A stretch of 64,000 nucleotides of DNA from Nemertoderma westbladi (Eukaryota; Animalia; Xenacoelomorpha): the NCBI GenBank assembly GCA_032718475.1, contig JAUCBJ010001029.1, positions 6,208 through 70,207 of the forward strand, read 5' to 3'. The translations under genes and the position numbers were made by a program. Of the stretch, positions 23,603 to 64,000 are shown piece after piece. The notes beneath the pieces are model-generated. The model saw nothing but the letters and a program-made list of their open reading frames with translations, did not search any database and was not told the DNA's origin. Numbering within the stretch: position 1 is the stretch's first letter; every line of letters begins with the position of its first letter.

Positions 23603-24319
23603 GTGAGTTACATTGAATATTCCAATGGGTGAGTTTTATTGGATTAATATACTCGTGGTGTTTTTATTCTGTGACGTCGATATTATGTCCCGTCAATATT
23701 TTGTACCTTAGATTTTTTTTGCACTCCACTGTCCCTCAATCTCATGGAGTTGGCCATCACCTAACCTTTACTAATTTTGGTAACAATTAGTTTATCTACA
23801 TAACTATCAGACTATTAATTTAATATATATTTTTTAAGTATAGTTACATCCCCAATCGCAATCGGGATAAATTATAATTGATATTATCTAAGTTAATTAT
23901 AACACAATAATTACTACAATAACCATACTGAATTAATACCATATGGACTATTAAAATATGCAAAGATATAAAACACTAATGTTAAATGAAATATTGTTTA
24001 AAATGAAATAGATATAAACATAAAAACATTGTATAGGCATTCAATGTAAATATTAATATTAATTTGTTGCATGGCATGATTGACGAACCTTAAAACCTTT
24101 ATTAATTTAATATTGTGGCGAGTCACCTAGAAAAGCGGGTTAACAGGTCAAAATCACCTTTCGAGAAATACAAAGTAAAGATTTAGAAGTTTAAATGGGG
24201 GTCACTAATTCCTTAAGAACGGTTGATTTTTCATTCGTGGTGCAGATTTTTATGAGGATTTCAAAACTTCCAACCGTTTGTTAACAGCTAATGTAGTTTA
24301 CAAGTTATGAGTGATAATA

Positions 24320-44201: not shown

Positions 44202-45808
44202 TGTTCGCGGTATTTCAACTTTCCATAACACGAGTTGAATATTTTTGTATTTATTTAAAATTGATTATTCCGATATTACTACTGGGTGCGGGATCATGGG
44301 TTTTGGGCACGTTCAATAAACTGGGGGCGATTTATGGGCGAACTTTGGGGCAACTTACAGGGTACGGGAATAATTTCATAGTTATAAGGGCCAGGGGGGA
44401 TGGAAAATGCAAGCAGTATTCAGGTTAGCCTGAGTACTATTAGGCCCTGGCCAACTTCCTGCTGCCTGTAGGGGTGGATTTGGTAATGCGCCAGGCCTAA
44501 AGGACAAGGACTGCCCTTAGCGGTCCCTGGCCAACGGCAGCTACTACGAGACTGAAAAGAACTCGGAACGCTGACTGCTTGTGTCAGGGATTTGCGACGG
44601 GCACCGACGGCCCCTTAGTAGCCAAGCCGTTCTGGTTCTCGATGATCGAACCCCGGGGTTCGTGAGGGGTGGAGCGGACACGCGAACAGGTGGCCAACTA
44701 ACGACTGCCCCCTGACCTAAGCCGTACTGGTTCTCGATGACCGATCCCTTCGGGGTTCGTGAGGGGTGGGACGGACATGCGAAAGGGCTGGCCACAGGAC
44801 TGGTTTGACAAGGACTGCCCTTAGCGGTCTCGGGTCAACGGCAGCTACTACGAGCCTGAAAAGAACTCGGAACGCTGACTGCTTGACTGGGATTTGCGAC
44901 GGGAACCGACGACAGACCCCTTAGCCAAGCCGTTCTGGTTCTCGATGATCGTTCCCTTCGGGGTTCGTGAGGGGTGGAACGGACACGCGATGGGGTCGAA
45001 AGACAAAGGACTAGACTCGACTAGACTCTACTGGCCTACCGACTGTTCGGAGCAGTTTCTCGGCTGCCGAAGCGACTACGAGCCTGAAACGGACTCGGAA
45101 AGCCTAGGTGGTTGGGTTTCTGTGATGAACTGACGGACCCCTAGCCAAGCCGTTCTGGTTCTCGATGATCGAACCCTTCGGGGTTCGTGAGGGGTGGAAC
45201 GGACACGCGAACGGGTCCACCGACACGACAGACTCCTAGCCAAGCCGTACTGGTTCTCGATGACCGAACCCTTCGGGGTTCGAGAGGGGTGGTACGGATA
45301 CGCGACAGAGTCTACCGACTGGACCGACCCTTAGCCAAGCCGTGCTGGTTCTCGATGATCGTTCCCTTCGGGGTTCGTGAGGGGTGGAACGGACACGCGA
45401 CAGGGTCGACCGACACCGACACTACGGCACTAGGACTAGGACCGAGGGAAAATCTGGGGAACATTAGGTAGGCTAAAATTCTGAGCGAACAGCGGGTTAT
45501 TAAATAATATACCGTAGGGATTTATATTATCGTGTATACTTATTGTGAATATTTGGTGTATATTGATTTGGGGAAGCCCAAAATTATTCTTAATCAAGGT
45601 TCAATATTGTTGAACAAGGTTCAACAGAGTTCAGTTACATTAAAGAGTATATCCAACTAATGCAGCTTTTCTCAACCGCAAACTTGCATCTTAGAAAATA
45701 TTCCCTCCCCACAATCAATATCCGGTGACTGGCCGGGGCTCGGTGGTCTGTTAAGTCACGTCTCCAGCATCGGCGTTTTTCCCCCCTGGTGTAGGAATAA
45801 CGGCAACA
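44202..45808 (+). repeat. 5' LTR
   Basis: TGTTCGCGG...GGCAACA; direct repeat of 56759-58365. Confidence 0.97.
44610..45410 (+). ncRNA. Array of six about 90-nt kink-turn/UUCG stem-loop modules in the 5' LTR (putative cis-acting RNA)
   Basis: Cores start at 44621, 44716, 44924, 45144, 45239 and 45334, with compensatory changes in the stems. Confidence 0.7.
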
Positions 45809-46020
45809 AAATTAAGAATAATTATCGTGGTCAACTTCAACTGGTGGAAGTTGAGAATCCTTCAATACTCTTCAAAAACTCTCTACGTGCTTGCCAGCAC
45901 CCACTACGAGGAAACTCTGGTATTTGAGTTGAGACAAAGTCGTGGTTTAATTAATCAGCAAACTCGATCTAACCAACTCGTAGTCGGCAGATCACATATT
46001 TGGAGAGTTGTTAACAGGGA

Positions 46021-46212
46021 ATGGAAGTATCGATCACACCCATTGATATAATTCAAGTTGAGCCAGGAATCTGGCACGTCGAAGTTGAGGTACAAGGAAC
46101 GAACGTCGGACGATTCAGGATTACTGTTCGGGTGGTTCAAGCTGAGTACAATACCTACGAGGAACTGTTTTACGACATCGCGTATCTCGCCATCGACGAG
46201 GCGTTACAATGA
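46021..46212 (+). CDS. 63-aa upstream ORF overlapping the gag-pol start (ATGA)
   Basis: ATG at 46021; its TGA overlaps the gag ATG at 46209; protein-like composition. Confidence 0.4.
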   Translation: MEVSITPIDIIQVEPGIWHVEVEVQGTNVGRFRITVRVVQAEYNTYEELFYDIAYLAIDEALQ

Positions 46213-49200
46213 CAACAAATAACGTATCCGATACCGACGAGATGGATCACAACACAGACTCGGAAGCCGACGAGGTACCAAACGTCAAAAACATGACCCG
46301 TCGGTTAGGGGCTCTTAAAGGCGGAGTAACCCGAGCGTATCAACGGATGGAGAAACAACTCAAGGGAGTCAAAACCCCCCTCAATGAGGTACAAACTCAG
46401 CTTCAAAGTATCCGAAATATCCTACAGCGGTACGAAAGAATGATACAGGCGTACCAAGAGCTCGTTCCCCCCACCGATCTGGAAAACTACCCCAAGCTGG
46501 AAGAACACGTTGTACATCTAGATGGGTTCCGCAAACAACACCGGAGGACCCTCAGCCTTGTGAGAGGCTATGAGGAACAGTATTACAAGAGGGCTGAAAG
46601 AACAGACGCGGAATCAGTACGATCCTCCAGCATCAGGACAGGAGTACATCGCAAGAGAATGGGGTCCACCAGAAATCAGCACTCCAGCGCTAGGAGCGAG
46701 ATATCCGGCTCAGCGCGCAGTTCTCAAGGGGCGCCGCCACTCCGAGACCAACTGCGAGAGCGGAAGGCATTAGCCCTCAAAGCTCGGATGGAAGATGAGT
46801 ATATTCAACTGCAAGCCGAGCAAGATGTATTAGCTGCAGAAACCCAAAGGCGAGAGGCCGAACAAGCGGCCGAACGGCAGGCCGAACAACGTGAACAGGA
46901 AGCCGAACAACGCAGGCGAGAGGCCGAACAACGCAAACACGAGGACGAACGACAGGCCGAACAGCGCAAACACGAGGCCGAACAACGCAAACAGGAGGCC
47001 GAACAACGCGGACGAGAGGCCGAACGGGAGATCGAACAACGTAAATGGGAAGCAGAAATGCGTAAACAACACGCCGAGGCCCAAGCAATTCTCATCCACA
47101 AAAAGAACGCGGATATTGCAAAACTCGCGGAATACGAAGCCGCACTTATAGAACGAGATATTCAACTCTACGAGGACTGGGAGAGGGATATAGATCAGGA
47201 ATATGAACCAATCCCGGTACCGGAATTAGAAAAGTCATTTATACCGACAGCGGCGAAACTTCCGAAACCCGAAATCCCGCCTACCAAACAGTCTACGCTA
47301 TCGGCACAAGCACCGGTGTTCCATCCACCACCGGCTACGTTAAAGAATGAGGAACCCTATTTCCCATCCAACACCACGACAGCGAGTGTACCCAAGTACG
47401 AGCCTGAAAAGGACTCGGAACGGGACGCCACTCCCCGATCAAACAACCCATTTACATCAACACCACTAACTCGCAGCCGCGTCATTATTAAAACTCCGCC
47501 TATCATTGATCCATCAAGTATGGGAGTGAGTGCCAATAACTATAACCCTCCGAGTCACTCCAGTTCAGACGATGTCAGCATCATCCGGGCGTTGGAGAAC
47601 CGCCTTGCCATGCCGAAGATGGAGATTCGCACCTTCGAAGGAGATCCCGTCGATTACCTCAGATTCAAGAAACGGTTCTTTGCGCAGATTGGATCAACGG
47701 ACATAGCCGACGCACAGAAATTGGTATATTTATCGCAATACCTGGGTGACAAACCCCGCAGAATTGTTGCATGTTTTGAAGGAGGTTCTCATGAGGCATA
47801 CTATGACGCATGGAAAACTCTAGACAAAAGATACGGAAATACCGGAACTATAATTAATAAAACTCTAGAGAGACTGATACAGGATGCGGGATCACTAGGG
47901 GACCCACAGAACATACAGGAATTCTCCGACTCTATGAAAGATGCCTATTATACTCTGAAACCCTTAAATAAGGAGGACCAGGTGAACAACATTCTAAACC
48001 TCCGACAGATCGCCCGGAAGTTCCCCGGATGGCTACAAAGTAAGTGGGCTTATAAATGTGTAGATCTCTGGCGCAGACATCCAGATCGAGATCCTAGCTT
48101 CCTTGAAATGTCGGCATTCCTGGATGATATCTCCGAAGCCATGAATGACTCGATGTTTTCAAAACAAAGTCTCGCAAAGTTGGACGGAATAGAGAGCAAC
48201 TCTAGGAGTAAGATAACCCCTCCGAAACCGAGATTCCGCCCCCCACCGGTAAGTACGATGGCCATTACCATGGCCGAGGATTCCGACGACGAAGACTACG
48301 AGGAACCGACATCCGCTGAGGAATGGGCATGTTATCTCGCGAGTTGGGCACCCGAAAGGGAAGGCATCACAAATTCCCTGCTCTGTCTCTTCTGTGGGGA
48401 GAAACATAAAGTGGAATTCTGCAGGAAGTTTCAGTTCGCCGAACTCGTCCCACGTTTCGAGGCGATAATGAAACACCGAGGATGCTTCCGGTGTCTTGGA
48501 ACAGGTCACTACGTTCGGGATTGCGACCAAAGGTCGTGCTGTGCTGTCTGTAACGACCAATGCCATCACACGCTCCTCCACATCCCCGCGAACTTCGACT
48601 TTACTACCCTCCCCTTTCGGATCGAAGCCAGGCGAAGAGGAGAAACAAACCACGTCTTCAAAGGAACCCGGACAACCCAACGGAGAGAAACCAACCCGTT
48701 TAAAATCTCCACCGATACACCACAAGTAACAAATATTTCGGCCACGATTAATCTTATAAATCGCCGCTACATGGTTTTCGCAAAGGTAATCCCAGTAAGG
48801 ATCCAAGGAGTCGGCAAATCTTTGACGACACTCGCATTCCTCGATAACGGGTCCGACGGAACCATCATTGACCGGGATTTTCTCGAGCAACTCGGCCTAG
48901 AATATGAGCCTTGTAAACGGCCCATACAAACCATCACCGATAACAGAGAGGTAGAGTCCGGGGAGGTGCAACTCCAGATGGAAGGAGTGATGAAGGGCTA
49001 CGAAACGGCTAAGTTAACCATAAAGAACGCCTTGGTACACACAGACCTCCGGGTGCGATTCCGACAATCAGCCGAGTACGCCCCCCTCATACAATTGGAC
49101 CGGGACGATGTAGACCTGAGGTGTCCGCAGTTGGACGTAAACCGTATCACCCTACTGATCGGACTTGATACACCGGAACTACAAATCCCCACCGGAGATA

Positions 49201-51695
49201 TCGCCCGATCTATAAACCAGGATGACGGATTTTATGCTGAACGAACAATAATGGGATGGACACTCTGCGGCATTAAGGAGGAAACCACGGACACCTATAC
49301 CTACCTTCCCAAATGTCAGATTAAAGAGAATGTAACCTCCGTGGGTTACTGCTCAGCTTCGGATCTCGACGAGGATTTGTTTCTGGAAACCGAGAAAACC
49401 CAACGAGAGATGACAAAATATTTTAATTTGGAGACCCAGGAGTTCGCGGAAAAGGACGAAAATCCATCCGAAGAGGACCAATATTGTATGGACGTTCTCG
49501 ACCAGGCCACGTTTAAAGACGGACACTGGAGTTCACCTATGTTATGGAAGGACCCAAACAAACCAATGGCAAACAACGCCAGCATGGCACTTAGGCGACT
49601 TAAAGGGATTCTACGCCGGTTGAATGACCAACCCGAGATAAAGGAGAAGTATAACACCGTAATCCAAGGATATCTCGATGATGGATTAGCAGAAATGGTA
49701 CCACGGAACGAACTGCAAGGTGGTAAAAGAACATATTATCTCCCGACCCACTATGTAGTAGAAGCCCGCAAAGGTGGGAAAATCCGAGTGGTAAATGATG
49801 CTGCCGCTATATACCAGGGCGAATCCCTAAACAGTCAACTTTATACGGGACCCAACATATATAGCACACTCATCGGCGTATTGATCAGGTTCAGGGAAAA
49901 CCGGGTAGCATTCACCTGTGACATCAAGGCCATGTTTCATCAAGTTCGTACATTACCAAGAGACTCGGACTGTCTACGTATCCTATGGACGGATAAAACG
50001 CTCACTCAACAGGAGATTAGCCAACTCACGATAAAGGACGTAGACATAATGCGTATGGTCGTCAGGATCTTCGGCGCTAAGGACTCGCCGGTAGCATGCA
50101 GTGACATGCTAAAGAGGACGGCAACCATGTGCGAAAACGAGTTCCCTCCAACCGTCATAGAAACCATTCGACGATGCTTCTACGCGGACGACGGATGCGC
50201 TGGCGCGGATAATGTAGATGAGGCGTATCAGCTAGCAATGGGGATGGTAGAATGTCTAAAGAAAGGAGGGTTCCCACTCGTGAAGTTCAGATCCCACGAC
50301 AAAACACTTATGGAGAAGTTTCCGGAGGACATCCGGCTGGAAAATAACAAGATGTATTCGGAGGATGTGGAACATCGTGTACTCGGGATTGAATGGGACA
50401 TAGAATCAGATGAATTCATCTTCAAATATAAACCCCTACCCAAGCCTATGACAAAAAGGGGATGTTTGTCGATAAAAAGTGCAATCTTCGACCCACTAAA
50501 TTTCATATCTCCAGTAACCTTGGCCGGAATGAACCTGATTAAGGAAATGTGGATAGAAGGACTGGGATGGGACGAAGAGCTTCCCCCATACCTTAGCGTC
50601 AAATGGAGAAAATGGACGGAGCAACTCGAACATCTACATCTTATGCGGATACCTAGACCGTTCTTCCTCGATAAACTGCCCACCGATATCTTCCAGCTCC
50701 ACACCTTTTCGGATGCTTCAAATACCGGAATCGGCGTAGTAACCTTCTTACGGAGACTAAGTAGCGATGGAAACGGCGATACAAGCTTCTTATTCTCCAA
50801 AGCAAAGACGGTATCCGGGGAATTCGTAGCAACGATTCCGAGACTCGAGCTACAAGCTGCAGTTTGGGCAGTAAGACAGAATCGCATGGCCATGCGGAAC
50901 CTACGGATCCCCATAGAATCTCAACACTTCTGGGTAGATTCGAGTATAGTTCTCTATTATCTCCACTCTCCATCACGGCGTCACACCACGTTTGTTGCAA
51001 ACCGAGCCACAGAGATTAAACAGTGTACCGGCCGAGAACAGTGGCATCACGTAAACGGGAAGGAAAACCCAGCGGACTTATCAAGCCAAGGCGCCACCCC
51101 AAAACAACTCGGTAAAAGTAAACTCTGGCTTACAGGCCCGGAATTCCTACGGCAGCCACAGTTAACATGGAGTACCCGATTCGACCCCGAACTCGATAGC
51201 GGAAAATACTCCGAGGACGATAAAGAGATTCGTAAAATCCATCGAAGCAACGCGGTGGAAATTTATAGTTGCCTGACTGAGCCTGCAAAGGACTCGGGCA
51301 GGCACTATAATGTCGCGACGATCACTCAACTAGCGACGTCTTTACATCGGTTGATCGAGCGAACTTCATCCATGAGACGGCTCGTCCACCACGTTATAAC
51401 CCTTCGCAACTTCCTACGGTGGAAAAACAACAAACCGATAGTTCAACGGAATATACAAGAACTCATTATCGCGGAGAAGTGTATTGTTAGATATGTCCAG
51501 AAAGAAAGTTTCCCCGATGAATGGGAACAACTTAGTGCGGGCAAAACGTTGAAACCGGACAGCCCAGTCTACCAACTAAGACCAATGATGGGAGAGGACG
51601 GACTGATCCGACTGAATACCCGGATGGCAAACGCCCCGGTCGAATATGAGGTTAAATACCCGGCGCTTCTGCCCGCTTCTAGCTTCTTCTTCTAG
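46209..51695 (+). CDS. BEL/Pao gag-pol polyprotein (gag with 3 zinc knuckles, protease, RT, RNase H), terminating before the integrase
   Basis: FEGDPVDY..F...F (DUF1759-like); CLFCGEKH, CFRCLGTGH, CAVCNDQCHHTLLH; FLDNGS protease; YYLPTH..KIRVVNDAA, DIKAMFHQV, FYADD RT; LHTFSDAS, TIPRLELQAA, WVDS, NPADLSSQG RNase H. Confidence 0.96.
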   Translation: MTTNNVSDTDEMDHNTDSEADEVPNVKNMTRRLGALKGGVTRAYQRMEKQLKGVKTPLNEVQTQLQSIRNILQRYERMIQAYQELVPPTDLENYPKLEEHVVHLDGFRKQHRRTLSLVRGYEEQYYKRAERTDAESVRSSSIRTGVHRKRMGSTRNQHSSARSEISGSARSSQGAPPLRDQLRERKALALKARMEDEYIQLQAEQDVLAAETQRREAEQAAERQAEQREQEAEQRRREAEQRKHEDERQAEQRKHEAEQRKQEAEQRGREAEREIEQRKWEAEMRKQHAEAQAILIHKKNADIAKLAEYEAALIERDIQLYEDWERDIDQEYEPIPVPELEKSFIPTAAKLPKPEIPPTKQSTLSAQAPVFHPPPATLKNEEPYFPSNTTTASVPKYEPEKDSERDATPRSNNPFTSTPLTRSRVIIKTPPIIDPSSMGVSANNYNPPSHSSSDDVSIIRALENRLAMPKMEIRTFEGDPVDYLRFKKRFFAQIGSTDIADAQKLVYLSQYLGDKPRRIVACFEGGSHEAYYDAWKTLDKRYGNTGTIINKTLERLIQDAGSLGDPQNIQEFSDSMKDAYYTLKPLNKEDQVNNILNLRQIARKFPGWLQSKWAYKCVDLWRRHPDRDPSFLEMSAFLDDISEAMNDSMFSKQSLAKLDGIESNSRSKITPPKPRFRPPPVSTMAITMAEDSDDEDYEEPTSAEEWACYLASWAPEREGITNSLLCLFCGEKHKVEFCRKFQFAELVPRFEAIMKHRGCFRCLGTGHYVRDCDQRSCCAVCNDQCHHTLLHIPANFDFTTLPFRIEARRRGETNHVFKGTRTTQRRETNPFKISTDTPQVTNISATINLINRRYMVFAKVIPVRIQGVGKSLTTLAFLDNGSDGTIIDRDFLEQLGLEYEPCKRPIQTITDNREVESGEVQLQMEGVMKGYETAKLTIKNALVHTDLRVRFRQSAEYAPLIQLDRDDVDLRCPQLDVNRITLLIGLDTPELQIPTGDIARSINQDDGFYAERTIMGWTLCGIKEETTDTYTYLPKCQIKENVTSVGYCSASDLDEDLFLETEKTQREMTKYFNLETQEFAEKDENPSEEDQYCMDVLDQATFKDGHWSSPMLWKDPNKPMANNASMALRRLKGILRRLNDQPEIKEKYNTVIQGYLDDGLAEMVPRNELQGGKRTYYLPTHYVVEARKGGKIRVVNDAAAIYQGESLNSQLYTGPNIYSTLIGVLIRFRENRVAFTCDIKAMFHQVRTLPRDSDCLRILWTDKTLTQQEISQLTIKDVDIMRMVVRIFGAKDSPVACSDMLKRTATMCENEFPPTVIETIRRCFYADDGCAGADNVDEAYQLAMGMVECLKKGGFPLVKFRSHDKTLMEKFPEDIRLENNKMYSEDVEHRVLGIEWDIESDEFIFKYKPLPKPMTKRGCLSIKSAIFDPLNFISPVTLAGMNLIKEMWIEGLGWDEELPPYLSVKWRKWTEQLEHLHLMRIPRPFFLDKLPTDIFQLHTFSDASNTGIGVVTFLRRLSSDGNGDTSFLFSKAKTVSGEFVATIPRLELQAAVWAVRQNRMAMRNLRIPIESQHFWVDSSIVLYYLHSPSRRHTTFVANRATEIKQCTGREQWHHVNGKENPADLSSQGATPKQLGKSKLWLTGPEFLRQPQLTWSTRFDPELDSGKYSEDDKEIRKIHRSNAVEIYSCLTEPAKDSGRHYNVATITQLATSLHRLIERTSSMRRLVHHVITLRNFLRWKNNKPIVQRNIQELIIAEKCIVRYVQKESFPDEWEQLSAGKTLKPDSPVYQLRPMMGEDGLIRLNTRMANAPVEYEVKYPALLPASSFFF

Positions 51696-51715
51696 CGCCA
51701 CCAATCACTCAAAAG

Positions 51716-52738
51716 ATGGCCGACTTACCAGCCACCCATCTACAAGCGGATTCCCAGCCATTCTACGTCACCGGGGTGGACTGTTTCGGACCGTTCACGG
51801 TTATTGAACGACGATCCAACATCAAATGCTGGGGAGCCATCTTCACCTGCCTGAGGTCTAGGGCAATTTACCTAGATATCGTGGTAAATCTGACACAACA
51901 CGCATTCATCAACGCTCTGCGTCGGTTCGTGGCGAACAACGGGACATGCCGCCACATGTATTCCGATAATGGTACAAACTTTGTGGGAGGAGAAAGGGAA
52001 CTCAGAGAGGCGATCGAGGGATGGTTTACCGATAACACCGCATCCCAAGTCTGGAAGGAACACCAGATACAGTGGCACTTCCAGACCCCCTTAGCCCCCC
52101 ATACGAGCGGGGTATGGGAGAAACTGATCGACCTCGTGAAACGATCCATGCGCGTCGCTCTAGGCGATACCCGGGTAACCCATGACACCCTCCGCACAAC
52201 ATTCTGCGAGATCACGGCTACCCTGAACAACCGACCTATTGTCCCTATCCGCGACGACCCCACAGACCTGGAGCCCCTCACTCCTAACCACCTACTGGGG
52301 AGACCCAAAACCCACGTTCTCCCGGAAACCATGTTCCCGGATCCCAACGAGATCGCGAAGCATACAAACTGGAAAAAGGCCCAAGCGTTGGCAGCGCATT
52401 GGTGGAGAATTTGGGCCCAGGAATATCTCATAACCCTCCGGACCAGGAGAAAATGGAACAACACCTACCGGAACGTCGCAGTTGGCGACATGGTACTAGT
52501 TAAAGAAGATCTCAAAGACCGCGTTCACTGGCCTGTGGCGCGGGTCGTGACCATACACCCAAGTAAAGACGGACTTGCGAGGACTGTGACGATACGAACG
52601 GCAAAGGGCCACTACCAACGCCCTATCCAGAAGCTGTGCCTTCTTGAAGGCAATGATAGTGGTGACTCTACGAGAGGTGATAAGATCCCTACTCAAGATC
52701 CTGCTGTGGACATTGGTGACAATTACAAACCCGTGTAA
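51716..52738 (+). CDS. BEL/Pao integrase core and C-terminus, out of frame with pol and lacking the HHCC zinc finger
   Basis: MADLP..PF..TGVDCFGPF, SDNGTNFVG, GVWEKLI, NNRPI, LTPNHLL, WPVARV..DGLARTV..RPIQKL. Confidence 0.93.
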   Translation: MADLPATHLQADSQPFYVTGVDCFGPFTVIERRSNIKCWGAIFTCLRSRAIYLDIVVNLTQHAFINALRRFVANNGTCRHMYSDNGTNFVGGERELREAIEGWFTDNTASQVWKEHQIQWHFQTPLAPHTSGVWEKLIDLVKRSMRVALGDTRVTHDTLRTTFCEITATLNNRPIVPIRDDPTDLEPLTPNHLLGRPKTHVLPETMFPDPNEIAKHTNWKKAQALAAHWWRIWAQEYLITLRTRRKWNNTYRNVAVGDMVLVKEDLKDRVHWPVARVVTIHPSKDGLARTVTIRTAKGHYQRPIQKLCLLEGNDSGDSTRGDKIPTQDPAVDIGDNYKPV

Positions 52739-53016
52739 CCCTTCTCATCATGTTGACAAACTCCTTTAAACTGTGATTTATCGACAACGAGTTATGGACC
52801 CCCCTTAAACCAACTGTAACCACGCAATGGTATTTGTGTTTCCTCGTGTGTTATGTGGAGTCCAGCGTCACCCTGCAGATGTTTCGACTGACGCAGGGTC
52901 GTTTATGTATTGTTTACCCTGATTTTGGTCATCGGGACCAACGATATTGGATTATTGGAAATGGAAAAGATTTGAAGTGGAATTCATTGTATTCATCGCA
53001 GTATGTTATGTTGTCC

Positions 53017-53427
53017 GTTGCGTGCGCAGTTCGGGGCGTAGGCGGTGTAACGAGTCCAGCTGTAGATCCCGGATTGCCGCGCAACACCCCCTCTATCCCG
53101 TTATTCTGGTGGGTCCATGGTGCATCCACGTGACTTCGACGATAGAGGGTTTTATGTTTCTCAGTCGCGTTATTCTGGTGGGACCGTTACGTGGATTTTG
53201 GGGCGTAGGCGGTGTAACGAGTCCAGCTGTAGATCCCAGAATGTTGCGTAACCCCATCCCACATGACTTCGTCGACTGAGCTTTATGTTGTTGGGAGTGT
53301 TATTCTGGTGGGTCCCTGGTGCATCCACGTGACTTCACTCCTAGCGTCTTCATTGTCCGTTACGTGCGCAGTTTGGGGCGTAGGCGGTGTAACGAGTCCA
53401 GCTGTAGATCCCAGATTGCCGCGTAAC
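53017..53427 (+). ncRNA. Triplicated structured RNA module between the integrase and the extra ORF
   Basis: Invariant core GGGGCGTAGGCGGTGTAACGAGTCCAGCTGTAGATCCC closed by covarying stems at 53017-53085, 53186-53252 and 53359-53427. Confidence 0.6.
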
Positions 53428-53990
53428 ACCCCTTCCACGACAAAGATTAACCAAAGAAAATGATTGAATATAGTTGGAAATGATGAAAAGGATCAGACAA
53501 CTCTGCTATAAACCTGAATGATGATGCGTATGCTGATGAAAATGTAATGATGCGCACCCTGGTGTTGCGCTTATAACCAATGATGATAGCCGGGGGGCTA
53601 TAAACCCAATGATGATGTGGAAATAAATAAATGTGAAATAAATGGTGGAAATAAATGTGTTGAAATATATGTGGAAATAAATGAAATGAAATGAAATAAT
53701 AATGAAATGAAAAAAGACAAAAAAAAAGGTATAAAAGAGGTCAAAGAAAAGAATTGGAAAAAAAAAGGACAAAAAAGTCATAAAAAACTGGTTGGATATT
53801 ATGTATAGCTATAGTAACTGTAAATGCTGAATGTATTAGCAATAAGATGATAGATGCCTATATAGCAATGTTATTTTATAAACTGAATTAAATAAAAACT
53901 GAATTATTCTGCTATCGCTATATGCTATAGTTTCAGACTTTCTGGACTTATAATTAACTGAACTAATTTGTAACGGATATAATCGTAAAT

Positions 53991-56591
53991 ATGGACCCAA
54001 ATCGCCAAATTATCGGCGAATTACGTAACACGGTAGATCTACTGGAATATTCGCAACCCGGATCCCCTGACTTTGATACGAATTGGAGCACCCTACTAAA
54101 TGAGAATGTGCGAGTCATTAAATTCACCGGGCGAGAGGGACCGGATTCTAAGAATCTACGAGCCCTCCGGTTAGCCGATGCTAGTACGAGACTGAAAAGA
54201 ACTCGGAACGCAAAGGCAACCGGAGGGGACGATTCGTCGTTTTGGGAAACGTTCCGACAGAGCGTCTACAGATCCCGATGTTTGATCTACGACAACGAGG
54301 GAAACGCGACGCCCACCTCGAAAGCGATTACGTTGGCGAGATGTCAAAGTTTCGTCGACGACAAGAGTACGTACCTCGCCCACTGGGGAAACCTGTCGGA
54401 GTGTACGGCGACGCTTCGAGAGGAACGCATATCGATTATCCAAAACCGCGACGACTACCAGGAAAAGTACGGGGCGAAAGAATACGGTCGATCCTTAGTC
54501 GTCGTCCTCGGAACCCTGGACGGTTTGGTACTGGTGTGCCGAATATTCCCGACACCCAGACAGGAAGTGCAGGCAGCCGGAGCGATCTGGTTGCTGCCTC
54601 CGGAAATCCAAAAGATCCTCTTCGACTTCGACGTCATTAAAATCGGGTCGGATATCAAGGCGGACGTCCGGAACGACTACGCGAATGCTCCTACAGGAAG
54701 AAACCGACGAGACGACCTCAACGCCCTTAGCCATTGCATCGACACTCAAACGCTACTAGCCTGGTTACGATTCGCCGAGTTCATGCGAGGATTCCAAGAG
54801 GTGAGACCGACGAAATCCGGGATCGGCTACCTCGCTGTGCTCAACGGCGGTATCGACTTCAAACCCCAGAAATTCCGGGACTATAATAAAATATACGGTG
54901 GATACCCGGGATTGGAAATAAAGAGCGAGCGAGAGGGTCGATGGAAGGACGTTGATCGGAAATGGACGATACACCAAAGATGGGAGAATCCCGATCGACG
55001 GAACTACGTTTACGTCGTTATGGAATGCTACACCGTCGCTAAGTTTATCTGTAAAACTCTCGATAACCTTATTACGGCGGTCCCCCTTTCCTTCGTCGAC
55101 TACGACTGGAATGAGGTTATAAACCACGCGTTTAAAGCGGTCGAGAACATTACACCGGGAGAATCGAAAACGCCCGCCGTTATCGATTCCTGGGACGAGA
55201 GCGGACCTTACGACATCCCTACGATTACCGAACTTCTCGGTGCGGAGGAGCCTCTGATCTCCTCGGAAGGGGAAGAGATATGGCTAAACGAGGGTGTTCT
55301 ACTCTCCACCCCGAAGCGACAACTCGAGCCGGAGGCCGCGTACGGACCGGCCGCCAAACGGGTTGCCTCGGCCGAACCGATGAAGAGAGCAGGCGTCTAC
55401 ACCCCACGCGGCTCCGGTAGCCCCGCGAGAGAGGTAGCCACTACAGCCGCATTGAGCGACTTTGGCGACATATGCCAACGGTTATCCCCGTATCCTTTCC
55501 CGGGCGGCGAAGATTGGTCGTCGGAGATTCCGAGTACCAGCCAACAACGGACCCGCTCAGCGATACTGGTCGAGGAAGGCCCCAGCGATGCGCCGACACC
55601 CGACGATCTCCTCGGTATCCCTCCGTCGAAAACCCCGGCACCTCTTCGCCGACCAGCGGTAGCTACTACACCCGCCGTTCCTCAGGACCCTATGCGACTA
55701 ACCCGTTGGTACGCCGAGCAAACTGAATGGATCCACCGCCAGAAACGGTCATCCGAGTTGAGACCAGCGGGACACAAAGAGGGTTATCGAAGCGAGAACA
55801 TACTACGCAAAAGCCTAGCATTCCGCGGGCTACCGACCACCGAGAATATTCCGAAGAGCGACCGACTACTCGAATACTACGCCGGCGTCCCGATTCCGAT
55901 ATTCACCGGTCGAGAGATGCAGTTGGAGGTATGCGGCGACTGCGGTTCGGAGCAGTGCCCACGCAGCAGAAGGAATCGGGTTACCGATTCTTGCCTCCAG
56001 CTCCTCGGGATACTCTATTGCCCATACTGCGCGATATCGGGCCACGACGTTTCGGTCTGTCCGATCCTTTATAACCTCTGCACCACGTGCGGTTTCCGTG
56101 GACATTCCGCTAGCCCCCGCTGCTATATTAAATGTCCAACCAAGGACGTTACCGCTATGGGCAATATGGTCATGTTTGAGACATACGCAAACAGCCATTT
56201 AAAGACCAAGTTTCGGAGAAACGCTCGGAATATCGCGCAGGAGATGGCGTGCGGATATTTCTCCTTCCCGGAACGCCTCCACACGTCGGCCTCGCTACCC
56301 TTCCATTACGTGGATCTGCTACTGAGCGCCGGATTATTCGGTCCATTCGAAGTTATTAGACGATTATATTCGTATAAAGAGGAGTTCGGTGATGGAGAAT
56401 GGTTCCTAGAGGCACGCAACTCCGAGTTGCAAAGACGAACCGACATGATACCGTTGCCTTCGAAAGGAAGAGCCGCCAGGAGACAAGCCGAAGCGTTACT
56501 CACAATGGATGTTGACGCTCCTCTACCAGCCATAGCGATCGATGAGAGTCGACGGGCGAAGAGACGAAAAGCGTACCAGAAAAAGAAGTAA
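53991..56591 (+). CDS. Extra retrotransposon ORF (866 aa): degenerate DEDDy 3'-5' exonuclease-like domain, Pro/Ser-rich linker, Cys/His clusters, basic C-terminus
   Basis: LPPEIQKILFDFDVIKIGSDIKADV, CIDTQ, SGIGYLA, W......YVYVVMECY parallel WRN/EXD-family motifs; CGDC, CPYCAISGHDVSVC, CTTCGFRGH; intact 2.6-kb ORF inside the LTRs. Confidence 0.8.
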   Translation: MDPNRQIIGELRNTVDLLEYSQPGSPDFDTNWSTLLNENVRVIKFTGREGPDSKNLRALRLADASTRLKRTRNAKATGGDDSSFWETFRQSVYRSRCLIYDNEGNATPTSKAITLARCQSFVDDKSTYLAHWGNLSECTATLREERISIIQNRDDYQEKYGAKEYGRSLVVVLGTLDGLVLVCRIFPTPRQEVQAAGAIWLLPPEIQKILFDFDVIKIGSDIKADVRNDYANAPTGRNRRDDLNALSHCIDTQTLLAWLRFAEFMRGFQEVRPTKSGIGYLAVLNGGIDFKPQKFRDYNKIYGGYPGLEIKSEREGRWKDVDRKWTIHQRWENPDRRNYVYVVMECYTVAKFICKTLDNLITAVPLSFVDYDWNEVINHAFKAVENITPGESKTPAVIDSWDESGPYDIPTITELLGAEEPLISSEGEEIWLNEGVLLSTPKRQLEPEAAYGPAAKRVASAEPMKRAGVYTPRGSGSPAREVATTAALSDFGDICQRLSPYPFPGGEDWSSEIPSTSQQRTRSAILVEEGPSDAPTPDDLLGIPPSKTPAPLRRPAVATTPAVPQDPMRLTRWYAEQTEWIHRQKRSSELRPAGHKEGYRSENILRKSLAFRGLPTTENIPKSDRLLEYYAGVPIPIFTGREMQLEVCGDCGSEQCPRSRRNRVTDSCLQLLGILYCPYCAISGHDVSVCPILYNLCTTCGFRGHSASPRCYIKCPTKDVTAMGNMVMFETYANSHLKTKFRRNARNIAQEMACGYFSFPERLHTSASLPFHYVDLLLSAGLFGPFEVIRRLYSYKEEFGDGEWFLEARNSELQRRTDMIPLPSKGRAARRQAEALLTMDVDAPLPAIAIDESRRAKRRKAYQKKK

Positions 56592-56758
56592 TGGATTGGG
56601 ATATTCCAGGAACATTTATCGAACATTTATTTTTATACAAACTCTAGGCCAAATTAATTAAAAACTATGCAATATTAAATTTGGGATTTTTTATATTGGG
56701 AATGACCTACGCAAACTCAATCGACCGACAGACTTCACGAAGGTCATTGGGGGGGGAC

Positions 56759-58365
56759 TGTTCGCGGTATTTCAACTTTCCATAACGCGAGTTGAATATT
56801 TTTGTATTTATTTAAAATTGATTATTCCGATATTACTACTGGGTGCGGGATCATGGGTTTTGGGCACGTTCAATAAACTGGGGGCGATTTATGGGCGAAC
56901 TTTGGGGCAACTTACAGGGTACGGGAATAATTTCATAGTTATAAGGGCCAGGGGGGATGGAAAATGCAAGCAGTATTCAGGTTAGCCTGAGTACTATTAG
57001 GCCCTGGCCAACTTCCTGCTGCCTGTAGGGGTGGATTTGGTAATGCGCCAGGCCTAAAGGACAAGGACTGCCCTTAGCGGTCCCTGGCCAACGGCAGCTA
57101 CTACGAGACTGAAAAGAACTCGGAACGCTGACTGCTTGTGTCAGGGATTTGCGACGGGCACCGACGGCCCCTTAGTAGCCAAGCCGTTCTGGTTCTCGAT
57201 GATCGAACCCCGGGGTTCGTGAGGGGTGGAGCGGACACGCGAACAGGTGGCCAACTAACGACTGCCCCCTGACCTAAGCCGTACTGGTTCTCGATGACCG
57301 ATCCCTTCGGGGTTCGTGAGGGGTGGGACGGACATGCGAAAGGGCTGGCCACAGGACTGGTTTGACAAGGACTGCCCTTAGCGGTCTCGGGTCAACGGCA
57401 GCTACTACGAGCCTGAAAAGAACTCGGAACGCTGACTGCTTGACTGGGATTTGCGACGGGAACCGACGACAGACCCCTTAGCCAAGCCGTTCTGGTTCTC
57501 GATGATCGTTCCCTTCGGGGTTCGTGAGGGGTGGAACGGACACGCGATGGGGTCAAAAGACAAAGGACTAGACTCGACTAGACTCTACTGGCCTACCGAC
57601 TGTTCGGAGCAGTTTCTCGGCTGCCGAAGCGACTACGAGCCTGAAACGGACTCGGAAAGCCTAGGTGGTTGGGTTTCTGTGATGAACTGACGGACCCCTA
57701 GCCAAGCCGTTCTGGTTCTCGATGATCGAACCCTTCGGGGTTCGTGAGGGGTGGAACGGACACGCGAACGGGTCCACCGACACGACAGACTCCTAGCCAA
57801 GCCGTACTGGTTCTCGATGACCGAACCCTTCGGGGTTCGAGAGGGGTGGTACGGATACGCGACAGAGTCTACCGACTGGACCGACCCTTAGCCAAGCCGT
57901 GCTGGTTCTCGATGATCGTTCCCTTCGGGGTTCATGAGGGGTGGAACGGACACGCGACAGGGTCGACCGACACCGACACTACGGCACTAGGACTAGGACC
58001 GAGGGAAAATCTGGGGAACATTAGGTAGGCTAAAATTCTGAGCGAACAGCGGGTTATTAAATAATATACCGTAGGGATTTATATTATCGTGTATACTTAT
58101 TGTGAATATTTGGTGTATATTGATTTGGGGAAGCCCAAAATTATTCTTAATCAAGGTTCAATATTGTTGAACAAGGTTCAACAGAGTTCAGTTACATTAA
58201 AGAGTATATCCAACTAATGCAGCTTTTCTCAACCGCAAACTTGCATCTTAGAAAATATTCCCTCCCCACAATCAATATCCGGTGACTGGCCGGGGCTCGG
58301 TGGTCTGTTAAGTCACGTCTCCAGCATCGGCGTTTTTCCCCCCTGGTGTAGGAATAACGGCAACA
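56759..58365 (+). repeat. 3' LTR (with a second copy of the structured RNA array, about 57167-57967)
   Basis: Direct repeat of 44202-45808, preceded by the PPT. Confidence 0.97.
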
Positions 58366-58824
58366 CTATGTATCCTTACTATGTATCCTTACTCTATGTA
58401 AGTATCCTTACTATGTATCCTTACTCTATGTAAGTATCCTTACTATGTATCCTTACTCTATGTAAGTATCCTTACTATGTATCCTTACTCTATGTAAGTA
58501 TCCTTACTATGTATCCTTACTATGTATCCTTACTATGTATCCTTACTATGTATCCTTACTCTATGTAAGTATCCTTACTATGTATCCTTACTCTATGTAA
58601 GTATCCTTACTATGTATCGTATCCTTACTCTATGTAAGTATCCTTACTATGTATCCTTACTAAGTATCCTTACTATGTATCCTTACTCTATGTAAGTATC
58701 CTTACTATGTATCCTTACTCTATTTAAGTATCCTTACTATGTATCCTTACTCTATGTAAGTATCCTTACTATGTATCGTATCCTTACTCTATGTAAGTAT
58801 CCTTACTATGTATCCTTACTCTAT
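58366..58824. repeat. 13/19-bp satellite, block 3
   Basis: Same units as block 1. Confidence 0.95.
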
Positions 58825-61173
58825 TAGTCGAGTCAATCTAGCAAAAAACCCATAAGTATTTCGCAATTAATCCGAACCACACATTTTGGATTCTATATTA
58901 CCTTATTAATGACCAAAAAAAAAGTCTATAAGATTTTATTTTGCGGATCATATGTTTATTAATGGAAATTCTGTGTAAATTTGCATAACACAAGCCAAAC
59001 AAAAGGAACATTAGGGAAGAGTAAGTAGCAAATTGGTGATGTTCCAGAATAATTTAATTAATTTCACAATAAGCTGTGATTCAATGTGAAATTAGTAATA
59101 TTTACACTGGCGTGTTACACATTAATTGCTATATCTCGGAAACTAGAAGTCGCATCAAATTTTAAAATATATCAAAAACTTTACGATATATTAAGGAAAC
59201 CGTTGTAAAAAAAAATCATACATTTCCACTGCAAGGAAATTTCATAATTTCCATTAATGTTAGCGAAGATTTTTCACATAATAAAATTGTGATTGCTCTA
59301 TTGATTTTAGGTGTAATTTATTTATTTCTTTTAGTTTGAAAACCACAATAGTTTATCATATAACAAATAAATTTTTTGGGGATAAGGGTATTTGAGGTCG
59401 ATAAATCCGATGGGCGAGGTTACATCCACCGGTTTAGTAGATAAGTTGTGTAAGTAAGGTCCTTATATTGTACCAGCAAAATTGGTATTAAAAATGGTTA
59501 AATTATTAGACAAATTTCCGTTGCTCTGGAAACTAAATTGGTAACCATATATAAGTATCATTAGAGTAAAGTTTGTCTGTATCAAATTTGGACTATTTGA
59601 TATCAATTTGGACTAAAGGTCAACTAAAGCCTCTCCCCAAGAAAGGAGACCTCGGCATACCAACAAACTATCGTGGGATCTGTCTGCTTGTGGTAGCTGC
59701 CAAAATATACAATAAAATGATTTTATATAGGATTAGGCCTCTCATAGAGAAACTACTGCGTAAGAGCCAAAACGGATTTCGACCAAGTAGATCAACAATA
59801 GCTCAGATACTTGCACTACGGAGACTGATTGAAGGAATTAAGTCAAAGAATCTCCCCGCAGTCATGACTTTTGTGGACTTCAAGAAGGCATTCGACTCCA
59901 TCCATAGAGGTAAAATGCTTGAAATCCTAAGAGCTTATGGAATACCAGAAGTAATTGTTGCTGGCATTGGATTGTTATATTGTGACACAGAAGCGCAGGT
60001 ACTCTCACCAGATAGTGAAACTGAGTTTTTCTCAATCCTGGCTGGCGTACTGCAAGGTGACACATTAGCACCATTACTATTTGTAATTGTGCTGGATTAC
60101 GCAATGAGGACGGCCACAAAGGGTGAAGATCTGGGATTCACACTTCAAGAACGCAGAAGTAGTAGATATCCGGCAACTACAGTCACAGACACCGACTTTG
60201 CGGATGACATCGCCCTGCTCTCTAATACGCTAGCAGATGCACAGCTTCTACTAAATAAAGTGGAGAGGGCTGCTAAGGAGGTTGGATTGTATATAAATGC
60301 TACCAAGACCGAATTCATGACCTTTAATGTTGATGGAAACTTGACAACCATTGATAATAATCAACTAAGGAAGGTCGATGACTTCCAGTACCTTGGATCA
60401 TGGATAGAGAGTAGCAAAAAGGACATAGAAGTTAGGAAAGCAAAGGCTTGGGTAGCTCTATCAAAAATGGATACCATCTGGAAATCAGATCTCTCCAGGC
60501 ACCTGAAGACTAAGTTCTTTCGAGCCACAGTGGAAAGTGTATTTTTATACGGGGGTGAGACCTGGACACTGACTAAATCACTTGAACAACGAATTGATGG
60601 TTGCTACACAAGACTACTAAGGGCAGCCCTAAACATCAGCTGGAGACAACACATGACAAACGCCGAGCTTTATGGTACAATACCACCTGTATCAACCACC
60701 CTCCGTGAACGCAGATTAAGATTCAGTGGGCACTGCTGGCGAAGTAAAGACGAGGTCATACCAGATCTACTTCTCTGGCAACCAACTCATGGAAAGCGTA
60801 GTCGTGGACGACCTGCCATAACATATATAGATCAACTTGAAAGTGATACTGAACTTGGGAGAAACGAAATTGCGACAACTATGGAGAATCGGGAAGCCTG
60901 GAAGGATCTCATTTCCACTGTCCGAGTTCGCTCGACCTAGTAGTAGTAGTAGTATCAAATTTGGAGAAAATCCCACCTATAGACCCCTTGTTGCTAAGTA
61001 AAATCAATGTTGCTAAGGAAAGAAACAGGAAATTGAAGGTGATCCGCATAATATATTTTTATAGACTTTATTGGGGGTATTAACAAGGTAATGTAGAATT
61101 AAAAAAATTGGTCTGGATGAATTGCGAATTTGTTATGGGTTGACCCCCTTTTTCGGATAGATTGACTCGCCTA
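58825..61173. mobile_element. Non-autonomous TIR DNA element (about 1 kb) interrupted by an RTE
   Basis: Imperfect TIRs TAGTCGAGTCAATCTA..ACCCATAA..TTCGCAATT / AATTGCGAA..TTATGGGT..TAGATTGACTCGCCTA; possible TAT target duplication. Confidence 0.7.
59593..60951 (+). mobile_element. 5'-truncated RTE-clade LINE with an uninterrupted RT domain
   Basis: PKKGDL..NYRGI, QNGFR, FVDFKKAFDS, GVLQGDTLAP, FADDI, FQYLGS; (TAG)n tail; 14-bp TSD GTATCAAATTTGGA (59579-59592 and 60952-60965). Confidence 0.95.
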
Positions 61174-61928
61174 TATGTAATATCTGTGAAAACTGTTTGT
61201 TTGGGATTGTGTTTCTGACGTCAAAATAAAACAAAAGCATTCATCCTCGCTAAACGTTTTGTTAAGGGGGATTTCCTGGTCGCTGATTTCATTACAAACG
61301 TCAGTTTTCACTTTTAACGAAAACTATTATGTCTGTCTGTCAGTCTGTCTGTCTGTCGGTTAAACGAAATGTCTGTCAAAATATAAGGACATCATACCAA
61401 CTAGCTAAAACTTATTTATTATTTGTTGCGGTTTTCTTGGTCGCTGATTTCATTTCCGACACCAGTCTCCATATTTGACGGCAACCTACTGGTGGTTCTG
61501 TATGTCGGTTGTTCTGTCTATCCAGCGATCTGTCTATCTATAGGCAGACAGACAGACTGTCTGAAGCCCAATCTTTGTTGCCCAAACTTCAGATTCTTTA
61601 TAAACGAATGACAAACCTTTTTGAAACTTTGTTGCAATCATCGGACAGTTATTTACTTAATTCGAATAATAATTAGCATTATTTCACTTGTCACCTTGAA
61701 AAAGGGATAACTATTTTGTGGATTTTAGATGGACATGACGACTTCAATGACTTTTTTCGAATACTTAAAATAATATTCAAGGCAAGTATTATACCTCATT
61801 GCAAAGGTAAATAAATTCTCTATTAACTTTTATTTTGAATAACTCAAAACTCGACCAGATGACCAGTTACCCCTTTTCTAGGTGACAGACATTATTACTT
61901 ATTGTAACTTTTCTTATTTTCTCACCAG

Positions 61929-63249
61929 GGCCGCGTCTTTGGGGAAGTCGTTCGTAGCCAATCACGACCCCGATGTGTACGTGCGTACGTGTCGGTTACT
62001 ACGGGTGATGAACGCGGTACGTCACCACCTTATCGGTATACCGCTAACGGTGACCCAGACGCGACGGCTCACCTTACCGGTGCTGGTGGACCGACTGGTG
62101 CACCGCAGACACTTCCCGCTCGCGTTGGAGATCTGTCGCTGGATGAGGCTGGGCGACGGAGCCGGCAAGGTGCGGGTACTCACTCACTGGGCGGTCTACA
62201 AGATCGGCCAATCGCGACTCAGCGAGTCGGATATATCGGACGCGATCAGCAAGGCCGTGGTCCCGGGGGTTTCCTTCTCGGAGCTCGCGATGGTCGCGTT
62301 GGACCGGGGCCGACGGGACCTGGCCATCCGGTTGGTCGGACGCGAGCGTCGTGCCGCCGACCGGATCCCGCTCCTCGTCCGACTCGAGCAGTACTCGATG
62401 GCGCTGCAATCCGCGTTGGATTCCGGCGACACCGAACTCGTCTACTTCGCGCTGCTCGCAGTGAAGGAGCGACGCAAGCAGGAGGAGTTCCTCCGCGCGT
62501 TGCGTGCGCACCCCGAGGCCGAGCGGTTGTATCTGCGGTGCTGCGGGAACCCCGGACTGGCCCTCGACGTGCACTACCAGAACGACGCCCACCGCGAGAT
62601 GGCGTTGTGCCGACTGGAGGAGGCCGAGAGGGAGACCGGCCATCAGTCTAGGTTGGCGGCGTTGCGCGGCGCTCTGGAGGAGTTCAACCGGGCGTCCCCA
62701 GGGGGCGCTGAGTTCAACTCGAGGTGCACCGAGGCTCACATCAACCTGCTGGGCTGGCAGCGCAGTCTGGAGACGGAACTCCGTAAACCCTTTATGGATC
62801 TAAGTCTTCTCGACACTATCCTTCGACTCCTCGTTCTCGGTGTCACTAAAACCGCGGAGACCACCCGCAAGGAATTCCGAGTCTCCGACCGACATTTCTG
62901 GTGGGTTAAAATTCGCGCGCTTTCCGAGCTCGGTGATTGGACGGAATTGGAGAAGTTTTCCCGCTCCAAGAAACAGCTGCCCATCCCGCTCGCCTCCTTC
63001 ATACACGTTTGTATCGGCCGCGACAACAAACTCGAGGCCGAGAAGTACATAAATCGGTTACCGGGGGAACAGAGGTCCCGGCAGTTGGCGCGTATCGGTC
63101 GCTACTCGCAAGCGATCGCCGTCGCCGTAGAACAGCGCTGTCTGCCCGATCTCGAGTTCATTGGGGTCCGCGCCGGTGTCACTAACGCCGAAGTTAAGGC
63201 GGCTGTGGCCGCAGCGAAGGCTGGGCTCACAGCAGCCCCGCGACGGTAG
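61929..63249 (+). CDS. VPS16: VPS16 exon 2
   Basis: Polypyrimidine tract and CAG acceptor; AASLGKSF..LRVMNAVR..GIPLT..HWA..SGDTELVY..LSLLDTI..EFRVSDRHFWWVKIRAL..DWTELEKFSRSKK matches Vps16_C; TAG stop at 63247-63249. Confidence 0.95.
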
Positions 63250-63584: not shown

Positions 63585-64000
63585 TACTATTACTAGGTCG
63601 AGCGAACTCGGACAGTGGAAATTAGATCCTTCCAGGCTTCCCGATTCTCCATAGTTGTCGCAATTTCATTTCTCCCAAGTTCAGTATCCCTTTCAAGTTG
63701 ATCTATATATGTTATGGCCGGTCGTCCACGACTACGCTTTCCATGAGTTGGTTGCCAGAAAAGTAGATCTGGTATGACCTCGTCTTTACTTCGCCAGCAG
63801 TGCCCACTGAATCTTAATCTGCGTTCACGGAGGGTGGTTGATACAGGTGGTATGGTACCATAGAGCTCGGCGTTCACGGAGGGTGGATGATACAGGTGGT
63901 ATGGTACCATAGAGCTCGGCGTTCACGGAGGGTGGTTGATACAGGTGGTATGGTACCATAGAGCTCGGCGTTCACGGAGGGTGGTTGATACAGGTGGTAT
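63585..64000 (-). mobile_element. RTE 3' fragment turning into a 49-bp tandem repeat (63821 to the window end)
   Basis: Homologous to 60660-60951; unit AGAGCTCGGCGTTCACGGAGGGTGGTTGATACAGGTGGTATGGTACCAT. Confidence 0.9.

Follow-up and report, generated by a model that had tools for sequence, protein, structure and literature searches.

Introduction

Third open reading frames (ORF3s) encoding a DEDDy exonuclease have been described in the bdelloid-rotifer long terminal repeat (LTR) retrotransposons Juno and Vesta and in Athena/Terminon elements (Rodriguez, Kenefick and Arkhipova 2017, PMC5408684), a description cited in the accessible text of two reviews (PMC5718144, PMC6338049). According to the available sections of the original paper, these proteins are encoded behind pol, are not env, lack membrane segments and have one catalytic acid replaced by Glu, and both RNA 3' processing and silencing have been proposed as their role. 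In BEL/Pao retrotransposons third genes have been described as env-like only (PMC8742986), as they are in the available text of two further papers (PMC3118150, PMC13524379). Here, we analysed a 64,000-nucleotide stretch of DNA from Nemertoderma westbladi (hereafter the window; assembly GCA_032718475.1, contig JAUCBJ010001029.1, positions 6,208 to 70,207 of the forward strand, with coordinates below counted from its first letter). It contains a complete BEL/Pao element whose ORF3 (53991-56591) resembles the bdelloid proteins in position, non-env nature and single acid-to-Glu change, and combines a predicted DEDDy-type exonuclease with zinc knuckles.

The locus also differs from its bdelloid counterparts. 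The element here belongs to BEL/Pao, and we take Juno and Vesta to be Ty3/Gypsy-like; neither 'BEL' nor 'Pao' occurs as a whole word in the main text of the bdelloid paper. The site of the window protein is of DEDE type and that of the bdelloid ORF3 is DEED, while the triple-knuckle domain and the conserved C-terminal motif are undescribed in the available sections of that paper. Furthermore, recent repeated acquisitions were inferred for the bdelloid elements, with near-neutral variation in resequenced env and GDSL ORF3s (PMC5408684, available sections), whereas the lineage studied here shows long co-inheritance and purifying selection.

A similar architecture occurs in trypanosome RNase D (TbRND; PDB 7C42), in which, as far as the accessible text describes it, a DEDD exonuclease is followed by tandem CCHC zinc fingers (PMC7797062). 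The comparison concerns architecture only: TbRND is a protist cellular enzyme with a canonical DEDD site and four fingers immediately after the nuclease, whereas ORF3 has three knuckles behind a linker of ~280 residues, and the likeness is probably convergent. With EXD2, Nibbler/Mut-7, EXD1, the WRN exonuclease and Egalitarian, of the PF01612 DEDDy group, ORF3 shares the fold and the layout of ExoI, ExoII and ExoIII, but it stands apart by an identity of 11-17%, by large family-specific inserts and by its residence in a mobile element. The env genes of other BEL/Pao elements, F-like in Roo and gB-like in mosquitoes (PMC8742986 and the available text of PMC13524379), occupy the same slot between integrase and 3' LTR; unlike them, ORF3 has no membrane anchor and encodes a nuclease fold and zinc knuckles instead. 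We found no exonuclease-knuckle ORF3 in BEL/Pao elements in the literature searched, which did not include Repbase, GyDB, Dfam, subscription journals or supplements, and database annotation may exist; the word 'exonuclease' is absent from PMC3118150, PMC13524379 and PMC5348765. Within this literature, a DEDDy ORF3 is already known from bdelloid elements, and the BEL/Pao host and the knuckles are apparently new.

The exonuclease domain

ORF3 is open from the ATG at 53991 to the TAA at 56591 (+ strand, as are all features of the element below) and encodes 866 residues: a DEDDy-type exonuclease domain, a variable linker, a triple zinc-knuckle domain and a basic tail. The protein alone has no match in Pfam, in the PDB (phmmer) or in a word-indexed protein search. 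The original prediction, made from the letters of the window, had proposed that the ORF is not env and encodes a degenerate DEDDy domain of WRN/EXD type together with Zn-binding clusters. All nine motifs that it quoted are found in ORF3, and both domain assignments held, the first through a profile leading to EXD2 and a predicted fold leading to the exonuclease (EXO) domain of Nibbler. It had staked itself on a match to a DEDD fold and on non-neutral evolution, and both were found.

The exonuclease core spans residues 82-363 (54234-55079). Its site consists of D101 and E103 in ExoI (D101-N-E103, 54291-54299), D225 in ExoII (54663-54665), and Y341 and E345 in ExoIII (Y341-x3-E345, 55011-55025), so that the last Asp, replaced by Glu, is the sole deviation: the D-x-E of ExoI and the Asp of ExoII are present, and the Y-x3-D of ExoIII is not. 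The Glu at 345 makes the window protein a DEDE variant of this fold and sets it apart from canonical DEDDy enzymes. The ExoII Asp and the ExoIII change had both been read correctly in the original prediction, which had, however, placed ExoI at TATLREE and concluded that its first Asp was lost. This was a misalignment: ExoI lies at LIYDNEG, TATLREE sits in an insert downstream of it, and three of the four acids and the Tyr are canonical. A query-free profile hidden Markov model (HMM) of 50 homologs aligns residues 81-379 at 76.8 bits with ExoI at LIYDNEG and an insert of ~55 residues next to it, and a MAFFT alignment with 43 sequences places ExoI likewise. In an ungapped position-specific scoring matrix of 24 rows, the LIYDNEG register scores 14.1, the highest in the whole protein (next-best window 0.9), and the TATLREE registers score -19 to -25, against a protein mean of -24.4 (sd 7.1). 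Alignments of only six to seven homologs had put ExoI at ISIIQNR or shown it as deleted, a placement overruled by the 50-homolog model, and testing ruled out a hidden frameshift that would have supplied ExoI in a different frame. With the missing Asp explained as a misalignment, the pseudo-nuclease proposed for the window protein loses its basis as stated; the idea does fit a sister clade, both ExoI acids being absent from 13 of 41 non-redundant domains.

The insert (residues 105-162, 54303-54476) resembles the strand-helix that precedes ExoI elsewhere in the family. A profile of that segment finds its best match in the whole protein inside the insert (4.1; residues 139-160, 54405-54470), compared with 0.8 for the segment in place and a background mean of -21.5 (sd 5.8), hinting at an internal duplication or displacement of the strand-helix.

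The D-E-D-Y-E site recurs in two relatives, P0004 and P0006, that are only 22-23% identical to the window protein; retention of five residues at such distance suggests that the site is under constraint. In a tree from which 14 near-duplicate or partial rows were omitted, the three DEDYE proteins cluster, on long branches and with support of 97/89, with P0016, in which most site residues are lost.

A profile of 43 sequences matches EXD2 at E 5.8e-10 and WRN at 0.13, and Atlas assigns residues 90-390 to PF01612 clusters at 0.92. An AlphaFold2 model of residues 31-392 has a predicted local distance difference test (pLDDT) score of 71.5 and a predicted template modelling score of 0.74; confidence is high in the ExoI-bearing helix and strand (pLDDT 88-95; ExoI block 95) and low in the insert (50-74). 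VIA-align of this predicted model finds Nibbler EXO as the best match (Z 13.4, second match 13.1; root-mean-square deviation 3.7 over 202 aligned residues), and each of the 50 matches listed is an exonuclease domain of DEDD or related type. Of the chains, 35 reach Z 8 or above; TbRND scores Z 10.7. The leading Foldseek matches are Egalitarian (top), EXD2, RICE, Nibbler and NrnC. EXD2 is thus the best match by sequence profile and Nibbler the best by structure, and the predicted model together with the EXD2 profile match indicates an RNase H-like DnaQ fold in which, judged from the alignment, the five site residues appear to cluster.

The zinc knuckles and the non-env character of ORF3

Three Cys/His knuckles occupy residues 648-711 (55932-56123). 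Knuckle 2 is a canonical C-x2-C-x4-H-x4-C and knuckle 3 a C-x2-C-x4-H-x5-C, while knuckle 1 has Gln at the position held by His in 85% of homologs. They are followed by a conserved motif without Pfam match (F729, E730, A733, T739, R742, G755 and Y773; 56175-56318), of the pattern F-E-x-x-A..T..R..G and extending to residue 776. Among positions not fixed by the pattern used to search for homologs, C648, C651, C668, C677, Y679, C680, C711, F729, T739, G755 and Y773 are 80-98% conserved in 84 homologs less than 90% identical to one another, which upholds the predicted Zn-binding clusters. The best PDB matches of the knuckle profile are TbRND, Air2, Lin28 and retroviral nucleocapsids (E 4e-4 and weaker), TbRND reaching 3e-7 in a further profile search; Atlas offers only leads below 0.9 for this domain. 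These likenesses suggest that the knuckles are likely to bind RNA.

As claimed originally, ORF3 does not look like env: it has no C-terminal membrane anchor, and both conserved domains are positively accounted for by a nuclease fold and zinc knuckles. Kyte-Doolittle windows of 19 residues exceed 1.6 only at residues 165-188, which form two core strands of the exonuclease in the predicted model, and none exceeds 1.3 beyond residue 190. Searches of Pfam, of the PDB and of viral folds listed no homologs of viral fusogens, the fold searches covering residues 31-392. A basic C-terminal tail (56547-56588), earlier likened to a nuclear localization signal, is present in the window and may act as one; as a family trait such a signal was rejected, since a comparable basic patch occurs in only 2 of 38 complete homologous ORF3s.

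The ORF3 family and its co-inheritance with the element

An exhaustive search with ORF3 retrieved eight relatives of 27-35% identity, all with the C-terminal Cys/His domain and six with the N-terminal domain. A degenerate knuckle pattern, which matches once in the window and never in 100 shuffles, was then found at no fewer than 133 loci, at least 120 of them metagenomic (~310 estimated) and 13 in prokaryote genome contigs, with no match in viral contigs. Flanks were retrieved for 80 of the metagenomic loci. The knuckle HMM scores at least 30 bits in 119 of the 133, among the matches listed. Six of the 13 prokaryote-contig matches (L124, L125, L128, L129, L131 and L133) also have the exonuclease, and a Pao pol stands next to it in two; we interpret these six as contaminating eukaryotic sequence and the remaining seven as apparent chance matches.

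Among the listed matches that score at least 30 bits on the knuckle HMM, 31 have 4 kb or more of upstream sequence, and in 29 of these a Pao pol or integrase lies upstream on the same strand; for loci with 3 kb or more the count is 35 of 42. Of 19 neighbouring ORFs compared with Pfam, all 17 chosen as pol have Peptidase_A17 and DUF5641, and the other two are unrelated neighbours. We compared trees of 29 elements, the window element and 28 loci with an unbroken integrase and an exonuclease domain, built from the fetched loci alone, without outgroups. The integrase tree recovers ten of the 11 starred splits of the exonuclease tree, and the reverse comparison gives 13 of 16, with no conflicts; the patristic distances correlate strongly (Mantel rho 0.83, reached in 0 of 2000 permutations). 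The knuckle tree has six starred splits, of which five agree; there is one conflict. The window element sits on a long branch throughout, without firm placement in any of the trees. The agreement between exonuclease and integrase trees identifies ORF3 as an old accessory gene co-inherited with the element; the simplest reading would be a single old acquisition, and more than one capture at the base of the family is possible.

The family contains intact and dead versions of the site. Among 45 rows with all five site columns, 16 read DEDYD, five DEDHD and three DEDYE, and L060 has a DEEYD site; after removal of rows more than 90% alike, 20 of 41 domains keep the full site. Most dead-site domains form one clade that is well supported in both the exonuclease and the integrase trees.

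Several members show features of their own. P0005 has a tandem duplication of the knuckle domain. L125 (3542-9538, - strand) encodes a Pao Gag-Pol in which a second accessory enzyme of the lineage, a deoxynucleoside kinase domain (PF01712, E 6e-46), lies upstream of the reverse transcriptase (RT). In L007, L010, L034, L053 and L062 ORF3 precedes gag, as in collapsed or circular assemblies of LTR elements.

Selection on ORF3

Many variant contigs from three DNA runs that bear the label of a single organism cover the region (4424 from run X1, 504 of them less than 90% alike), so the window element belongs to a multi-copy family, although contig depth does not equal copy number. A further run that may be RNA, X6, covers 14 of 30 bins. 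The 40 best-supported of 364 variant rows include 34 within codons of ORF3, with 27 synonymous and seven non-synonymous changes (expected synonymous share 0.285, p 1e-9), giving a ratio of non-synonymous to synonymous polymorphism (pN/pS) of 0.08-0.10. Within 54400-55050, the best 40 of 61 variants comprise 31 synonymous and nine non-synonymous changes (pN/pS 0.11), and codons 225, 341 and 345 are free of variants among these 40. Both pN/pS values are rough, as variants were classed singly by site and in the displayed subsets only. No indel falls in ORF3 among the 12 of 32 indels shown, and none is listed in 54400-55050; internal ORF3 deletions are seen in low-depth contigs.

Between elements, the ratio of non-synonymous to synonymous divergence (dN/dS) of the exonuclease is 0.09-0.53 in six pairs with intact sites and 0.18-0.43 in six with dead sites, values to be read with dS near saturation, non-independent pairs and two near-identical, uninformative pairs in mind. 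Purifying selection thus acts in the intact-site clade, in the dead-site clade and in the window's own family.

The host element and its surroundings

The complete element enclosing ORF3 occupies 44202-58365 (14.2 kb), exceeding the 4.2-10 kb given for the BEL/Pao family (PMC8742986). Its 5' LTR (44202-45808) and 3' LTR (56759-58365), each 1607 bp and bounded by TG...CA, differ by three mismatches (99.8% identity); the element is young. A 5-bp target-site duplication, CTATG, flanks it (44197-44201, within a satellite array, and 58366-58370), and a polypurine tract precedes the 3' LTR (56749-56758). The gag-pol frame (46209-51695) encodes DUF1759 (E 5e-15), a CCHC zinc finger (zf-CCHC), an aspartyl protease (1e-4) and Peptidase_A17 (2e-37), and the integrase core (rve, 4e-4) with DUF5641 (5e-30) follows in a different frame (51683-52738). 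These domains identify the element as BEL/Pao, and Gag-Pol has the Pao-type order of protease, then RT/RNase H, then integrase. RVT_1 is unmatched in the window's pol in Pfam, and matched in 15 of 17 homologous pol ORFs. The pol of this copy is broken near 51690, where a frame change ends the gag-pol frame prematurely; ~46-49 codons of the integrase zinc-binding region are missing between the two frames relative to 18 homologous loci. ORF3 is intact.

A spacer of 1252 bp (52739-53990) separates integrase and ORF3 and contains three copies of a long hairpin, an AT-rich stretch and a candidate splice acceptor, TTTCAG (53931-53936), after which no ATG occurs before 53991. The LTRs contain six copies of a ~55-nt hairpin (44637, 44732, 44940, 45160, 45255 and 45350 in the 5' LTR, and likewise in the 3' LTR) with a 3-nt bulge, a tandem GA pattern and one compensatory swap in the outer stem; they are unmatched in Rfam, and nothing reaches the gathering level there anywhere in the element. 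We take the hairpin to resemble a kink-turn, and the copies are possible protein-binding sites. A 32-nt motif 97% identical to one repeated in the LTR lies in frame within ORF3 (54180-54211), encoding residues 64-74 in a low-confidence region of the predicted model. Both copies fold into the same hairpin (z -2.7 and -2.4), and the one in ORF3 carries an AGUA/GAA pattern that resembles a loop E motif.

The element is inserted in satellite between two Vps16 coding blocks, N-terminal (22380-23606) and C-terminal (61882-63249), both on the + strand and 38 kb apart, and satellite and element are presumably intronic. The regions 59570-60948 and 63585-63874 hold a non-LTR-type RT fragment (RVT_1, E 2e-34) and a 290-nt inverted repeat that flanks the C-terminal block; parts of the RT region recur inverted at 11410-12046. 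Elsewhere in the window, an ORF of 1253 residues (15640-19401, - strand) contains Gly-rich 10-residue repeats and has no significant Pfam match; its C-terminal part resembles a DDE transposase of the Sola/CMC kind.

Discussion

Our preferred reading, to which we give a probability of roughly 0.4, is that ORF3 is an old BEL/Pao accessory whose predicted exonuclease and RNA-gripping knuckles counter small-RNA silencing. The product would unite a DEDDy-type 3'-to-5' exonuclease with zinc knuckles in one chain and, as its own ORF lies behind a 1.25-kb spacer, would be made apart from Gag-Pol. The knuckles may grip single-stranded RNA and pass its 3' end to the nuclease, much as in trypanosome RNase D; small-RNA guides or untrimmed precursors would be the targets, and their loss would weaken host silencing of the element. 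In the dead-site clade the protein may act by binding or as a decoy, without cutting. We prefer a counter-silencing role because ORF3 would be a product separate from Gag-Pol, because small-RNA 3' trimmers are among its nearest folds and because a dead version is still useful, as expected of a decoy. Nibbler/Mut-7 and EXD1 act in PIWI-interacting RNA (piRNA) pathways. This is taken up in part in the discussion of PMC5408684, and the available text of PMC7797062 reports that the zinc fingers of TbRND hold single-stranded RNA, boosting RNA binding and, greatly, cleavage, and that its overexpression depletes guide RNAs. In the accessible part of PMC5451212, the last acid of RICE1 is Glu and is required; by this analogy a Glu there need not abolish activity, and we lean slightly towards a DEDE site that is still active in the window protein. 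The more specific proposal, an anti-piRNA weapon long carried by a widespread and previously undescribed BEL/Pao lineage and made of a Nibbler/EXD-like exonuclease joined to RNA-binding knuckles, which would destroy or mis-trim precursors and be replaced in sister clades by a dead decoy, is one we hold only tentatively and regard as somewhat unlikely.

Several observations weigh against this reading. Cutting is not essential to the value of ORF3, since the clade without both ExoI acids stays under selection. The final acid of the window site is Glu, not Asp, and RICE1, otherwise non-canonical and apparently metal-independent in the available text of PMC5451212, is a weak precedent. The DEDE grouping unites long branches, and P0004 and P0006 were themselves retrieved by similarity to the query. 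In the predicted model, the low-confidence insert beside ExoI could block the site. The best PDB match in Foldseek has an E of 2.4e-3, short of the 0.001 threshold, and Nibbler, diDNases and NrnC are tied within one Z unit, with RICE-like proteins, WRN, RNase D and Pol I closely behind; such likeness of a predicted fold does not single out a function. The tandem knuckles would be just as well suited to bind RNA of the element itself. Finally, according to the accessible sections of Rodriguez et al. (PMC5408684), there is no clear link between the bdelloid ORFs and copy number.

ORF3 might instead handle the element's own RNA, binding the hairpins of LTR and spacer and trimming, protecting or packaging the genomic RNA or transporting it, perhaps to germ cells, much as the dead exonuclease domain of Egalitarian serves in RNA transport. 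The knuckles resemble nucleocapsid and Lin28 fingers, six hairpin copies in the LTR and three in the spacer would offer targets, one LTR hairpin being repeated within ORF3, and Egalitarian, whose entries include a complex with I-factor RNA, tops the Foldseek search. A binding role would also account for selection on the dead-site clade, and ORF3 follows the integrase without signs of exchange, like a cis-acting partner. Yet the folding of LTR windows exceeds that of shuffled sequences only slightly (z 0.5 to -2.7), Gag already has knuckles, and the full catalytic site kept in about half of the family would be superfluous for pure transport. We consider this explanation rather doubtful but close behind our preferred reading. 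That the window protein itself is a pseudo-nuclease, with Glu345 and the insert having abolished cutting and only RNA or a host partner being bound, is less probable still. The Glu, the insert adjoining the active site, the dead members of the family and the mostly site-less P0016 grouped with the window protein speak for it, but D101, E103, D225 and Y341 are retained, also in the two distant DEDE relatives, three site codons are variant-free among the variants displayed, and the dead clade loses the ExoI acids first, which the window protein still has.

We think it very unlikely that the nuclease assists reverse transcription by editing 3' ends, through proofreading or primer trimming. Such a function would suit the fold, which is common to Pol A proofreading domains, and an element of unusual length. 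However, ORF3 lies outside the polyprotein, so that co-packaging with RT cannot be taken for granted, dead sites persist in a large clade, and the nearest profile match is EXD2, not a polymerase. As for a captured host gene carried as a neutral passenger, the extreme divergence of the protein from all cellular families, with no Pfam match of its own, might have suggested it, but a pN/pS of ~0.1, an ORF free of indels among those shown and congruent trees across dozens of elements have largely refuted it already, and we attach next to no credence to it.

ORF3 defines a large protein family, invisible to Pfam, with natural active-site and dead-site versions and a long history shared with the element, a scope larger than the original prediction had seen. 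Its domains are small and soluble and can be assayed directly. Few element-encoded candidates are available for the resistance of animal LTR retrotransposons to piRNA silencing. If ORF3 handles the element's own RNA, it would represent an env-independent aid to transmission; if the anti-piRNA reading is true, animal LTR retrotransposons would have in this family a naturally paired set of counter-defences, one that cuts and one that binds.

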